Of a stretch of 27,186 nucleotides of DNA, positions 3,773 to 8,736 are shown in pieces. Origin of the DNA: a bacterium (lineage in GTDB: Bacteria > Patescibacteriota > Dojkabacteria > SC72 > JAFGCJ01). The first letter of the stretch is position 1; every line of letters begins with the position of its first letter. The DNA lies in the NCBI GenBank assembly GCA_043816465.1, contig JBDRHV010000058.1, forward strand, positions 1 through 27,186. The letters are read 5' to 3'. The notes below the pieces were generated by a model, which worked only from the letters and a program-made list of their open reading frames with translations, was not told the DNA's origin and did no database searches. Position numbers and translations under genes: made by a program.

Positions 3773-5242
3773 ATGAAAAATAAGAAAATCGTGAAGTACA
3801 TATTGATAGGACTAGGTGTTCTGACTGTTTTGGGTCTGATTTACTATTTTCTAATTTTTCTTCCTAATCAGAGCAATATAAAAGAAGCTTCAGTATTAAT
3901 AAATGAAGCAGAGGAATTCATTGAGAATGGAAATTATTTTTCTGCGGTAGAAAAGTATCAAGAAGCAAGTGAGATTGATGGTAGAAGTACAGATGCATAT
4001 GTAGGTCTTGCTGAGATATATCTCTTAAAGAATAGGCAAGATAATGCGATTGATATTCTTCAGATTGGAATTAACAAGGCAAGAAACTCGAGTAGGGTTA
4101 ATCAGGTACTTGGTAGGATTTATCTATCTGAAGGAGATTATAGTAAAGCAATATACTTTCTGAAAAAATCGGTGAGCAGTGACAAAAACAATGATGATGC
4201 AAAGTTTTTGCTGGCTCAAGCATATGTAGGGACTGGAGATTTAGATCAATCTGAGTCTGTGCTTGATGTTTCAGATAATGACAAAAACCTTTATGCCAAG
4301 GCAAAGCTATTGAATGCAATGCTCATTGGGGAAGATACCAAGCATGCAAAGGGATTGTTAGATGACATAAATAGTTCTGATTTGGATGATGAAGTTGCTG
4401 ATCAAGTGGAATTTTTTAACGAGGTTTTGGATTATATTGATTCTTTGGATGATGATATCAAGACGGATGTGTATGTATCGGTTATGATTTCTAGGGCTGC
4501 TTTGTATTCAGGATATCCTGATCTTGTGATAGGTCTTTTGAGTGAATATGTTGAGGAATATGACTTGTATTGGGAGCTCAATCTTTATCTAGGACATGCA
4601 TATTTACTCAAATACGATTATGAGAATGCACTTGTGTACTTATCACAGGCGTACCTTCTTGAAAGTGATTTATCAATAAGTGCAAGACTTTTAGCCAGGG
4701 CATATCTTGGAGATGATAATGTAAGCGATACAATAAAGTACTACGAAAAAGCAATAAATTTGGCTAAGAACCAAAACAAGGTAGATACTCGGCTTGAGTA
4801 TTTTGAAGTACTGATAGAAAAGGAACAATACGTAAGGGCGGAGGAGCAGTTAGATTTACTTCTATTGGTTGATGATATAGATACAGATACGCTTTTGATT
4901 CAATGGGGAGATTCTCTTCTTGATCGGGAACTGTATTCTCAGTTGGAGGAGAATATGGAGAAAATAAAAATAAACAATCTTGATGATGATTTGAAAGCAG
5001 AGTACTACTACCTTGAAGCGGGTGTGTCTTTGGGACAGGCCAGCTGGGATGATGCAACTGAAGCGATTGAAAAAGCGATTGAAATCGATGATAAGATGGC
5101 GAAATATCATCTACTTTATGGTAGAATCCTTTATCAGTCAGGTGTTGATATTCAGGCAAAAGTTGAGCTAGAGAGATCTGTAGAGTTAGACCTTGAGGGT
5201 GAGGTTTCTACAGAAGCTCAGAAAGTTTTGGACAGAATATAG
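3773..5242 (+). CDS. Membrane-anchored tetratricopeptide-repeat (TPR) protein
   Basis: Basic N-terminus plus TM helix (YILIGLGVLTVLGLIYYFLIFL); repeated TPR patterns (AYVGLAEIYL...A..ILQ.GI, LGRIYL..GDYSKAIYFLKKS, LGHAYL...DYENAL.YL..A); acidic composition. Confidence 0.85.
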   Translation: MKNKKIVKYILIGLGVLTVLGLIYYFLIFLPNQSNIKEASVLINEAEEFIENGNYFSAVEKYQEASEIDGRSTDAYVGLAEIYLLKNRQDNAIDILQIGINKARNSSRVNQVLGRIYLSEGDYSKAIYFLKKSVSSDKNNDDAKFLLAQAYVGTGDLDQSESVLDVSDNDKNLYAKAKLLNAMLIGEDTKHAKGLLDDINSSDLDDEVADQVEFFNEVLDYIDSLDDDIKTDVYVSVMISRAALYSGYPDLVIGLLSEYVEEYDLYWELNLYLGHAYLLKYDYENALVYLSQAYLLESDLSISARLLARAYLGDDNVSDTIKYYEKAINLAKNQNKVDTRLEYFEVLIEKEQYVRAEEQLDLLLLVDDIDTDTLLIQWGDSLLDRELYSQLEENMEKIKINNLDDDLKAEYYYLEAGVSLGQASWDDATEAIEKAIEIDDKMAKYHLLYGRILYQSGVDIQAKVELERSVELDLEGEVSTEAQKVLDRI

Positions 5243-5342: not shown

Positions 5343-7454
5343 ATGGCTAAAGGCGAAAACATAAAGTTCGATCTGGATAAAATCAGAAACATCGGAATTA
5401 TCGCTCATATAGATGCAGGAAAGACCACTACTACAGAGTCTGTCCTTTTTCATACAGGCAAAACTCACAAAATAGGAAATATTAATTCTGGTACTACCCA
5501 GATGGACTGGATGGAACAGGAGAGAGAAAGAGGCATAACTATTCAATCTGCAGCAACCACTTGTTATTGGACATTGGATGGAGTGAAATACAGAATAAAC
5601 ATTATTGATACCCCCGGTCACGTGGATTTTACAGCGGAGGTAGAGAGATCACTTAGGGTACTTGATGGTGCAGTCGTTATATTTGACGGAAAGATGGGAG
5701 TTGAGCCTCAATCTGAGACAGTTTGGAGACAGGCAGATAAGTATCATGTACCTAGAATCTGTTTTGTCAATAAGTTGAACCTTGTTGGTGGAGATTTTCA
5801 GATGGCTCTCGATTCAATCAGAGATAGATTGAACAAAAGGGCATATGTGGTACAGATTCCCTTAGGTTTTGAGAAAGGAATACATGGAATCATAGATATT
5901 GTTGAGAGAAAGGCTTTCCAATACGATCCCACAGGTACCGATGAAAAACTTGAGGAGATAGATGTTCCTGAGGAGTACAAAGAGAAGGTTGAATCATATA
6001 GAACTGAATTAATTGAGGGAATTGCGGAATATGATGATGATTTTATGCAGAAGTATCTTGATGGGGAGGAAGTTAGTGTAGAGGAGATTTGGAAGGTATT
6101 AAGGAAGGCAGTATTGAGCGGTCATTTCTTTCCGGTATCAGGTGGAGACTCAAGAAAAGGAAATGTCGTTCCCAAAATATTGGATCTTGTAGTTAGATTA
6201 CTTCCTTCACCTGCAGATATTACCGAGGTTGAAGGGATGGATGTTGATGATCCAGAGAAGAAGGTCAAGATTAAATGCTCAGATGATGAGCCATTTACAG
6301 GTCTTGTTTTCAAGATTGCTACAGACCCCCATATCGGAAGTCTTGCATATGTAAGAGTTTATTCTGGACAGCTTGGAGCAGGTACTTATGTAATAAACTC
6401 AACTAATGGAGTAAAGGAAAGAGTTGGAAGGCTGGTGCTTATGCATGCAAATGATAGAGAAGAGGTTGAAGGTGTAAGGACTGGTGATATAGCTGCAATT
6501 GTTGGTTTAAAGGCATCTACTACAGGAGATACTCTTTGTGATCCAAGTAGGCCATTACTTCTTGAAAAGATTCATTTCCCTGATCCTGTTGTGAATGTAG
6601 CAGTAGAGCCTAAATCTACTTCAGACCAGGAAAAGATGGGAGTTGCGCTTAAGAGGCTTGCGGATGAAGATCCTACATTCAAAGTTTCAGTAAATCAGGA
6701 GACTGGTCAGACCATTATCGCCGGAATGGGGGAGCTTCATCTTGAGATTATTGTTGACAGAATGAGGAGGGAATTCAATGTTGAGGCAAGTGTTGGTCAA
6801 CCTCAGGTAGCATACAAAGAGACAATCCAGTCTACAGTTGAAATTGAAGGTAAATACGTTCATCAGTCAGGTGGTCGAGGTCAGTATGGTCATTGTTGGC
6901 TTAGACTTGAGCCACAGAAAGCTGGTGATGGATTTCAGTTTGTGGATGAACTTAGAGGTGGGTCAATTCCAAAAGAGTATGTCCCTGCGATTAGAAAAGG
7001 AGTTGAAGAGGCTATGCTTTCTGGAGTTATTGCTGGATACCCTGTTGTTGATGTTAAGGTGGCTGTATACGATGGTTCTTATCATGATGTGGACTCATCC
7101 GAGGCTGCTTTTAAGATTGCGGGTGCTCAGGCATTCAGAGCTGGTGCTCAAAATGCCGATCCAGTAGTACTTGAGCCAATAATGGACGTTGAAGTTACAC
7201 TTCCAGAACAATACCTGGGTGACGTAACTGGTCATCTTAGTAGTAAAAGGGGTAGAATCGAGGGCACAGAGGTAAGAGGCGATCTTCAAGTAATTAAGGC
7301 AAAAGTACCTCTTGCAGAGTTGTTTGGATTCACAAATAATTTGAGATCCATGACCTCTGGAAGGGGAACACCAAATATTGAATTTTCGCATTATGACAAG
7401 GTTCCTAAGAATATTATGCAAGAGATGGCAATCAAATCTGGAGCCGAAGAGTAA
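5343..7454 (+). CDS. fusA: Elongation factor G
   Basis: AHIDAGKTT, ERERGITI, DTPGHVDF, GMGELHLEI, HQSGGRGQYGHC, DGSYHDVDSSEAAF, LEPIM; 703 aa. Confidence 0.98.
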   Translation: MAKGENIKFDLDKIRNIGIIAHIDAGKTTTTESVLFHTGKTHKIGNINSGTTQMDWMEQERERGITIQSAATTCYWTLDGVKYRINIIDTPGHVDFTAEVERSLRVLDGAVVIFDGKMGVEPQSETVWRQADKYHVPRICFVNKLNLVGGDFQMALDSIRDRLNKRAYVVQIPLGFEKGIHGIIDIVERKAFQYDPTGTDEKLEEIDVPEEYKEKVESYRTELIEGIAEYDDDFMQKYLDGEEVSVEEIWKVLRKAVLSGHFFPVSGGDSRKGNVVPKILDLVVRLLPSPADITEVEGMDVDDPEKKVKIKCSDDEPFTGLVFKIATDPHIGSLAYVRVYSGQLGAGTYVINSTNGVKERVGRLVLMHANDREEVEGVRTGDIAAIVGLKASTTGDTLCDPSRPLLLEKIHFPDPVVNVAVEPKSTSDQEKMGVALKRLADEDPTFKVSVNQETGQTIIAGMGELHLEIIVDRMRREFNVEASVGQPQVAYKETIQSTVEIEGKYVHQSGGRGQYGHCWLRLEPQKAGDGFQFVDELRGGSIPKEYVPAIRKGVEEAMLSGVIAGYPVVDVKVAVYDGSYHDVDSSEAAFKIAGAQAFRAGAQNADPVVLEPIMDVEVTLPEQYLGDVTGHLSSKRGRIEGTEVRGDLQVIKAKVPLAELFGFTNNLRSMTSGRGTPNIEFSHYDKVPKNIMQEMAIKSGAEE

Positions 7455-7483
7455 TAGCTGATAAGTTTGACTTAAAGGCTTTC

Positions 7484-7512
7484 TTGAAAGATATTATTGT
7501 TTTTGGTAATAT
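7484..7512 (+). promoter_or_regulatory. Internal promoter upstream of tuf
   Basis: TTGAAA (7484-7489), 17 nt spacer, extended -10 TG-G-TAATAT (7504-7512). Confidence 0.6.
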
Positions 7513-7563
7513 ACGCAGCGTCACAAAGAATTTATTAAATAATAATTTTTTAATATTAATAAA

Positions 7564-8736
7564 ATGGCAGAGACGAAATTTGATAGATCAAAGCCTCACT
7601 TAAATATTGGCACGATTGGCCATGTTGATCATGGAAAGACCACTTTAGTGAAAGGAATTTTGAAAACATTTGCTGGCGATGAAGCAGCTAAATGGATTGA
7701 AAAGCTTGATAAATCACCAGAGTCAAGATCAAAGAGTCTTACAATTTCTGTTGCACACGTAGAGTATTCAACAGATAACAGACATTATGCACATGTTGAT
7801 TGTCCAGGTCATAAAGACTATGTGAAGAATATGATTACAGGTGCTGCACAGATGGATGGTGCAATCTTGGTAGTCAGCTCAGCAGACGGTCCAATGCCTC
7901 AGTCAAAGGAGCATGTACTTCTTGCTAAGCAGGTTGGAGTTCCAAAGATTGTAGTATTCATCAACAAATTTGGTGATGCAGATGATGAGATTATCGAACT
8001 TATTAAGGCTGAAATTAAAGAGATTCTAAAGAAATATGAATACGATGAGAATTGTCCAATTATTGTAGGAGACGCTAAGGCTGCTGAAGATGGAAAACCA
8101 GAAGGAATTGAGTCAATAAAAGAACTTATGAAGGCAGTAGATGAATATATCCCATTGCCAGAAAGAGATATCGAAAAAGACTTCTTAATGCCAATTGAAG
8201 ACGTATTCTCAATCGAAGGAAGAGGTACCGTTGCTACAGGTAGAATTGAAAGAGGAAAGATAAAGGTTGGTGAGTCAGTCGATATTCTCGGATTGGGCAA
8301 AGACACAAAGTCTACTATCACAGGTGTTGAGATGTTCAATAAGACACTTGATGAAGGTATGGCAGGTGATAACGTTGGACTTCTTCTTCGAGGACTCAAG
8401 AGAGAAGATGTTGAAAGAGGTCAGTCTATTGTTAAGCCAGGTAGTACACAGATTCACACGGAATTTAAGGCTCAGGTATACGTATTAAATAAGGATGAAG
8501 GTGGAAGACATACACCATTTGTTAATGGTTATAAACCACAATTCTTCATCAGAATGGCAGATGTTACTGGTGAGGTAAATCTACCAGAAGGTACAGAGAT
8601 GGTTATGCCAGGTGATGATACAGAGTTCTCATGCAAGTTGATCGTTCCAGTCGTTGTAGAAAAGGGAATGAGATTTGCACTCAGAGAAGGTGGAATGACA
8701 GTTGGAGCCGGTATTGTTACCGAGATCATTAAGTAA
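7564..8736 (+). CDS. tuf: Elongation factor Tu (divergent)
   Basis: [88 protein letters not shown]. Confidence 0.98.

Follow-up and report, generated by a model that had tools for sequence, protein, structure and literature searches.

Altered G4 and G5 guanine-specificity motifs in the elongation factors EF-G and EF-Tu of Dojkabacteria, and in EF-G of other CPR bacteria

Results

The fusA-tuf locus and its altered motifs

The window analysed here is the whole of contig JBDRHV010000058.1 (27,186 nt, forward strand), part of a Dojkabacteria assembly from the candidate phyla radiation (CPR) that comprises 751 kb in 163 contigs and is 87% complete. It carries the genes for two translational GTPases: fusA at 5343–7454 (+), encoding elongation factor G (EF-G, 703 aa), and tuf at 7564–8736 (+), encoding elongation factor Tu (EF-Tu, 390 aa); each is the sole copy in the genome. 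The two proteins are otherwise orthologous to the standard factors, yet both lack the GTP-specificity motifs NKxD (G4) and GSAL/SAL (G5). EF-G scores 1020.4 bits against the TIGR00484 equivalog model (cut-off 659.4) and is matched by phmmer to Thermus thermophilus EF-G (1DAR) over residues 6–697 with an E-value of 1.3e-254. EF-Tu passes its equivalog model, TIGR00485, with 618.1 bits (cut-off 522.4), matches the solved EF-Tu 6I8R with an E-value of 1.5e-170, and has the three-domain architecture PF00009, PF03144 and PF03143 in Pfam.

All of the motifs that follow lie on the + strand. In EF-G the G1 motif or P-loop (AHIDAGKT, A21–T28, 5403–5426) is canonical by direct reading and by the 1DAR alignment, and so is G3 with its catalytic His (DTPGH, D89–H93, 5607–5621), which is invariant in our alignment of variant EF-Gs. 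G4 reads NKLN rather than NKxD (N143–N146, 5769–5780, aat aag ttg aac), with Asn replacing the base-reading Asp. G5 reads GGDSR rather than GSAL (G267–R271, 6141–6155), with Asp for Ser and Arg for Leu; G267 occupies 6141–6143, and GDSR 6144–6155 (gga gac tca aga).

In EF-Tu, reading and the 6I8R alignment agree on a canonical P-loop (GHVDHGKT, G19–T26, 7618–7641) and on a G3 that includes the catalytic His (DCPGH, D79–H83, 7798–7812). The residue after G3 is K, not A, so that GHADY has become GHKDY. Switch I (S54–S62, 7723–7749) has KSLTI for RGITI, the Mg-binding Thr60, invariant in the EF-Tu alignment, being kept. The GHKDY and switch I changes go beyond those described in the initial annotation of this DNA. 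At G4, NKFGD (N134–D138, 7963–7977) stands in place of NKCDM: NKFG (7963–7974, aac aaa ttt ggt) has Gly where the Asp would stand, with an Asp as the very next residue (D138, gat). G5 is GDAK instead of GSAL (G169–K172, 8068–8079, gga gac gct aag), with Asp at the Ser position.

In the phmmer alignments NKLN and GDSR of EF-G fall exactly on NKMD and GSAL of 1DAR, and NKFG and GDAK of EF-Tu fall exactly on NKCD and GSAL of 6I8R. The initial annotation had reported these four motifs, with an Asp after NKFG, and had described the P-loop, DxxG and catalytic His as intact; direct reading and the structure alignments confirm both statements for the two factors. AlphaFold2 models of the G domains (EF-Tu residues 1–205, EF-G residues 1–305) have a predicted local distance difference test score (pLDDT) of ~90 or more near G4 and G5.

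Both frames are open under translation table 11, and the codons in question (AAC, GGT and GAC) are ordinary sense codons. The same states occur in 118 of the 120 closest EF-Tu homologues, from many independent assemblies, and in dozens of related genomes; the substitutions are therefore neither chance nor assembly error.

The two genes, with intact frames, head an operon that continues downstream with rpsJ, rplC, rplD and the remaining ribosomal-protein genes. Only three genes with a GTP_EFTU domain are present in the whole genome (87% complete), those for EF-G, EF-Tu and IF2. In the relative G054, assembled into one contig at 99% completeness, the set is limited to LepA, EF-G, EF-Tu and IF2, with both elongation factors of the variant type. 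No second fusA or tuf was found in the window's own genome, at its 87% completeness, or in closed relatives. The initial annotation had reserved the case that canonical fusA or tuf copies elsewhere do the main work, and no such copies turned up in this genome or in G054. A gene for EF-Ts was also found in the genome. Since fusA and tuf are sole copies, G054 has the variant factors only, and EF-Ts is present, the EF-G and EF-Tu encoded here are the cell's working factors.

The gene directly upstream of fusA, at 3773–5242 (+), encodes a protein of 489 aa that has repeats like those of tetratricopeptide proteins and, at its N terminus, a membrane helix. This position is usually taken by rpsL-rpsG, which means that the str operon of this genome is split.

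Two coupled states of EF-G

Within the GTDB class of this genome, EF-G occurs either in a canonical state, NKLD with [AG]G[SA][SA]LKNKG, or in a variant state, in which NK[LI]N goes with GGD[SAGT]R and one residue is deleted; the deletion, which falls after G5, is found in most relatives. We scanned GTDB species genomes for the DNA pattern encoding NKxN-x-[LIVMF]-GG[DN]F and recovered at least 116 loci, of which at least 93 were EF-G by a loose filter and at least 77 by a stricter one (VPR[IMLV] before G4). The 77 matches listed are labelled Saccharibacteria, Saccharimonadia or Nanosyncoccus (46), Dojkabacteria or WS6 (8), WWE3 (4), other CPR (7), and other or unspecific (12). The guess that the change is lineage-wide, made in the initial annotation, was right, and the EF-G swap reaches further, into Saccharibacteria, WWE3 and other CPR.

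Among the matches listed, G5 is x-G-D-x-R in all 71 NKxN EF-Gs in which it is covered. An alignment of 27 variant G domains has N143, K144, G268 and R271 invariant and N146 and D269 nearly so. We also built a maximum-likelihood tree of 76 EF-Gs from which the G4 and G5 columns had been removed. Sixty-one of its rows lack the G4 Asp and have Asp or Asn at G5 (60 of these with the G5 Arg as well), 15 are canonical, and none is discordant. Each trait, G4 loss and G5 gain, needs four changes on this tree; the independent pairs on well-supported branches are concordant in three of three cases (sign test p = 0.25). A survey for G4/G5 covariation had been proposed with the initial annotation, and for EF-G it finds loss and gain never apart, with no discordant case either among the 76 or among the 71.

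One of these switches lies in family f17 of the class (families are numbered f1, f2 and so on throughout), which has EF-G with NKL[AS] and CGDALSNKG in six of seven genomes, and canonical EF-Tu. This is an independent and bare swap, with neither the Arg nor the deletion. A pattern scan of 301 phylum genomes, mostly returning noise at counts similar to those of the control, gave no EF-G with NKxD and GDxR; its single EF-G candidate for this combination proved canonical.

The DNA pattern used for the wider scan also matched FWLNKLNxFGG[DN]F in non-EF-G proteins of 500–1850 aa in Acidobacteriota (ten loci, from Pyrinomonadaceae, Chloracidobacterium and others). The motif is one conserved in another protein family.

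A stepwise, variable series in EF-Tu

The EF-Tus of families f8, f14, f17 and f20 have NK[VCI]D, GSAL, GHADY and RGITI and form one clade. The remaining families of the class have N-x-F and GH[KRS]DY in common. In most of these N-x-F families G4 is N[IVMLR]F[DE] and G5 is G[SN]AL, that is, the Lys is gone and the Asp kept, and in several of the N[IVMLR]F[DE] families switch I has been rewritten and lengthened (IAKGG..R...KIVTVA). The order to which the window belongs (f1–f4), together with f5 and f12, has N[KTDLV]FG, in most cases with an acid (Asp or Glu) as the next residue; G5 is mostly G/V/I-D-A-L/K/F in f1–f5, and the two f12 sequences have GSAL and GNSY there.

Of the 120 nearest EF-Tu homologues, 71 have NKFG at G4, 32 NTFG, 9 NDFG and 8 something else, and 105 have Asp at G5; NDFG is accompanied by GSAL. 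In the EF-Tu alignment N134 and F136 are invariant, and G137 is nearly so. All 47 EF-Tus with G5 Ser, out of 182, have Asp or Glu at G4 position 2, 4 or 5; the eight of the 182 that have no acid at any of these positions all have Asp or Asn at G5; and every one of the 182 retains at least one Asp, Glu or Asn beside the base. On the EF-Tu tree the loss of the position-4 acid takes about six changes. There are four independent pairs, in most of which the G5 state is unchanged, and the test has no power. Clustering at 50% identity merges variant with canonical EF-Tu, and the 150 representative proteins listed are mostly canonical, with a few oddities (NVKY, NDKT and NKIE).

At the non-Dojkabacteria loci listed where tuf adjoins a variant fusA, EF-Tu is fully canonical (two Saccharibacteria, two WWE3, and the rest with unspecific labels). 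Because variant fusA stands beside canonical tuf outside Dojkabacteria, the EF-G change is much the older and wider of the two, and the EF-Tu change later, stepwise and variable. The initial annotation had spoken of parallel remodelling in the two factors; that description holds in Dojkabacteria-type lineages and fails elsewhere, Saccharibacteria and WWE3 having the EF-G variant with canonical EF-Tu.

Two observations on individual EF-Tus may be added here. The lengthened switch I, IAKGG[VI].R(..)KIVTVA as against IDKAPEEKARGITI, keeps only the Mg-binding Thr of the usual segment and is accompanied by a G4 without the Lys, N[VIMR]F[DE]; the lengthened form is present at 18 loci, in families f10, f11, f13, f16 and f19 and in part of f12. 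The relative G002 (family f6) has two EF-Tu genes, a variant (NVFDA with GNAL) and a canonical one (NKVD with GHMDY) that is on a 1.5-kb contig and falls in the canonical EF-Tu clade. The canonical gene may be contamination, estimated at 2% for this genome, or a true second copy.

Other translational GTPases and guanine metabolism

We extracted the translational GTPases from 16 genomes representing 15 families of the same GTDB class. IF2 always has [NT]KxD with VS[AG]K at G5, LepA has [NS]KxD with S[AG]K, and BipA, scored at G4 alone, has NKID. Canonical IF2, LepA and BipA thus occur in genomes with variant EF-G and EF-Tu. A RelA/SpoT homologue (~500 aa) was found in the window's own genome and in four relatives. 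Since IF2, LepA and BipA are of the GTP type and the RelA/SpoT homologue has been kept, guanine nucleotides are still used, and a guanine-nucleotide pool is still needed in these cells.

Guanylate kinase (PF00625) is present in 41 of 151 class genomes; neither the closed genomes G054 and G071 nor the window's own genome yielded a match. Nucleoside diphosphate kinase (NDK) was not found in the own genome, nor in families f1, f3, f4 and f6. Family f2 combines the variant factors with NDK in 37 of 45 genomes, and the canonical families f8 and f20 are mostly without guanylate kinase. We rejected the two kinases as a metabolic correlate of the motif changes; their presence is patchy and does not follow the states of EF-G or EF-Tu.

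Among other GTPases, Obg (PF01018) was not found in the own genome. Neither Ffh nor FtsY of the signal recognition particle (SRP) turned up in the own genome or in the roughly 160 Patescibacteria genomes searched. SRP54 (PF00448) had no real match in the own genome, in 61 class genomes or in 81 phylum genomes; weak matches proved to be Lon and PilT in the own genome and a Mur ligase in one other (G214). SRP_SPB had no match in 21 relatives, the small SRP RNA (RF00169) had none in five genomes, four of them single-contig, and the motifs DTAGR and TKxDG..RGG had none in the own genome. In control genomes both protein families were found in 14 of 14 and the SRP RNA in 12 of 14. Either the SRP pathway has truly been lost or the search was blind to it.

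Discussion

A proposed relocation of the base-reading carboxylate

In GTPases of this fold the G5 Ser side chain packs against the G4 Asp, as Ser145 does against Asp119 in Ras. The G4 Asp makes a bidentate contact to guanine N1-H and N2-H2 and the backbone NH of the G5 Ala reads O6, and a survey of PDB complexes found that guanine can also be read by Asp or Glu outside NKxD (PMC11594714). Judging from the sequence patterns, we think it somewhat more likely than not that the purine pocket of EF-G and EF-Tu has been rewired and not lost: the carboxylate that reads the base would have been relocated, with compensation, and GTP would remain in use. As to the nucleotide that drives elongation, relocation is our best reading, favoured over ATP or a relaxed specificity.

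The base-reading charge would have shifted across the contact between G4 Asp and G5 Ser. In EF-G the Asp/Ser pair would have become Asn/Asp, and the Arg that takes the place of the Leu packing on the purine face may add stacking or orient the G5 Asp. In EF-Tu the G4 Gly would make room, with Asp at the G5 Ser position and a second acid one residue after the Gly. The G5 carboxylate would read the same guanine edge, and the factors would keep cycling on GTP and GDP, with altered and probably weaker affinity and with altered exchange kinetics. We would expect weaker affinity and faster exchange, either as a by-product or possibly as the effect selected for. Relocation is the simplest reading because the exchange across the G4/G5 contact is strictly coupled; repeated paired switches in EF-G and the retention of at least one acceptor in EF-Tu are what such epistasis would predict. 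A compensatory relocation had been among the suggestions of the initial annotation, and it gains support from covariation, with about four joint switches and no discordant case in EF-G and with an acceptor always kept in EF-Tu; the pocket geometry, the nucleotide and the kinetic consequence are predicted from these patterns.

Several points weigh against this reading. The independent events are few, with p = 0.25 in the EF-G sign test and an EF-Tu test without power. The EF-Tu pocket varies within its clade, with K, T, D, L, V or R at G4 position 2, G, P or K at position 4, D, E, A, G, T or Q at position 5, and D, N or S at G5, and a few EF-Tus have Asn only and no carboxylate; such variability suggests relaxed guanine reading more than a precise one. 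A neutral compensated swap also leaves unexplained why the change is confined to the two high-flux elongation factors. Finally, the closest experimental precedent for a G4 Asp lost with a G5 acid gained, that of SpoIVA and of engineered Era, led to a preference for ATP (PMC7952092).

Alternative explanations

This precedent is one reason to consider that EF-G and EF-Tu might accept ATP or any purine nucleoside triphosphate (NTP), with the low-flux IF2, LepA and BipA staying on GTP, an explanation that we regard as unlikely but as a serious contender. Adenine N1 could take a hydrogen bond from the amide of the G4 Asn, and adenine N6-H2 could give one to the G5 Asp. In SpoIVA the change of NKxD to NSxR, with a G5 acid (SxE), goes with ATP preference, and Era engineered to NSxR and SAE hydrolysed ATP and not GTP (PMC7952092); the SpoIVA acid, however, is at a different G5 position (S+2). 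It also speaks for ATP that precisely the two GTPases with the highest flux have lost the specificity determinant, IF2, LepA and BipA being canonical, and that the EF-Tu pocket residues are so variable. Guanine-nucleotide metabolism is thin as well (guanylate kinase in 41 of 151 genomes; NDK not found in the own genome, f1, f3 or f4), but the distribution of these kinases does not follow that of the variant states. Guanine reading requires an acceptor beside the base, and a carboxylate or an amide is kept there in every case. In Saccharibacteria, with variant EF-G and canonical EF-Tu, GTP would still drive at least the EF-Tu step of elongation. Core translation factors powered by ATP are improbable a priori. 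The corresponding claim about the cell, that ATP or any purine NTP drives elongation in Dojkabacteria (through both factors) and translocation in Saccharibacteria, WWE3 and other CPR (through EF-G only), we hold to be a shade less likely still.

CPR organisms such as these are thought to be episymbionts exposed to host products, and the changes might serve to evade an alarmone, a nucleotide-analogue toxin, or a host or phage effector acting at the guanine pocket, with GTP use kept and the pocket surface changed. The limitation to EF-G and EF-Tu, the independent recurrence and the presence of a RelA/SpoT homologue would fit, but IF2, a classical target of guanosine tetraphosphate (ppGpp), is unchanged, no known effector offers itself as a candidate, and the window shows no linked gene. 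Moreover, the base of ppGpp is that of GTP and GDP, so base-side changes should not be able to discriminate between them; for this reason the ppGpp insensitivity raised in the initial annotation is unlikely, and we consider evasion as a whole quite improbable. That the genes are an artefact, decaying, or specialised paralogues, with canonical copies doing the main work, is effectively refuted. The own genome is admittedly a fragmented metagenome-assembled genome (163 contigs, 87% complete) and G002 carries its extra canonical EF-Tu on a 1.5-kb contig; against this stand the intact frames at the head of a ribosomal-protein operon, scores above the equivalog cut-offs, the same states in more than 100 independent assemblies, and the single-contig G054, in which variant EF-G and EF-Tu are accompanied by IF2 and LepA only.

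Significance

The NKxD Asp is treated as an invariant GTPase signature, and few known proteins are as conserved as EF-Tu and EF-G. Here a large bacterial radiation has replaced the NKxD determinant repeatedly, always with the same partner change, and the lineages with the EF-G change include cultivable, genetically tractable human oral Saccharibacteria. A full-text literature search found no report of altered G4 or G5 motifs in CPR elongation factors, and the literature searched contained no description of a FeoB-like G4 state in EF-Tu. The only related remark is that ribosome-biogenesis GTPases are few in CPR (PMC12641178). If the base-reading carboxylate has indeed been relocated, the factors described here offer a natural alternative solution to guanine reading, useful for GTPase engineering, for orthogonal translation systems and for annotation by motif, which would flag them as non-GTPases. 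If they instead read ATP, the energy currency of elongation would have changed, and reading of ATP or of any purine would be the first natural departure from GTP in core translational GTPases. The stepwise EF-Tu series over sister families is a ready evolutionary trajectory for reconstruction.

Comparison with known systems

Canonical EF-Tu (6I8R, 1EFC) and EF-G (1DAR, 2BM0) share with the present factors full-length homology, domains, the P-loop, the switch I Thr, the His of DxxGH, and operon position. They differ from them at the G4 Asp, here Asn in EF-G and Gly in EF-Tu, and at the G5 Ser, here Asp; further differences are Arg for the G5 Leu in EF-G, and KSLTI for RGITI and GHKDY for GHADY in EF-Tu.

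The engineered xanthosine triphosphate (XTP) mutants EF-Tu D138N and Ras D119N carry the same Asp to Asn change, at the same position, as the EF-G described here. Such a replacement of the G4 Asp switches Ras and EF-Tu from GTP to XTP (cited in PMC7952092). In these CPR, by contrast, the change arose in nature, whole lineages have it fixed, and it never comes without a new G5 Asp, which the engineered mutants lack. The XTP-switch type is further unmatched in that G5 of EF-G is rewritten to D-x-R and that Gly, in place of Asn, stands in EF-Tu. XTP does not belong to a cell's normal nucleotides, and its use by these factors is therefore implausible.

SpoIVA and the Era ATPase have likewise lost the G4 Asp and gained an acid in the G5 loop, on the same TRAFAC fold (PMC7952092). 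The likeness to this type is one of principle only: SpoIVA has no Lys (NSxR) and its acid comes two residues after the Ser (SxE), whereas the EF-G and EF-Tu of the window keep the Lys and have the acid at the Ser position. SpoIVA is, moreover, a cytoskeletal ATPase and not a ribosome-dependent factor.

FeoB-type and some other GTPases have degenerate G4 and G5 motifs (NxxD without the Lys, and a weak G5) and release GDP fast. FeoB belongs to a different family; in losing the Lys and keeping the Asp it nevertheless resembles the EF-Tus of the sister families, with their N[IVMLR]F[DE] and G[SN]AL.

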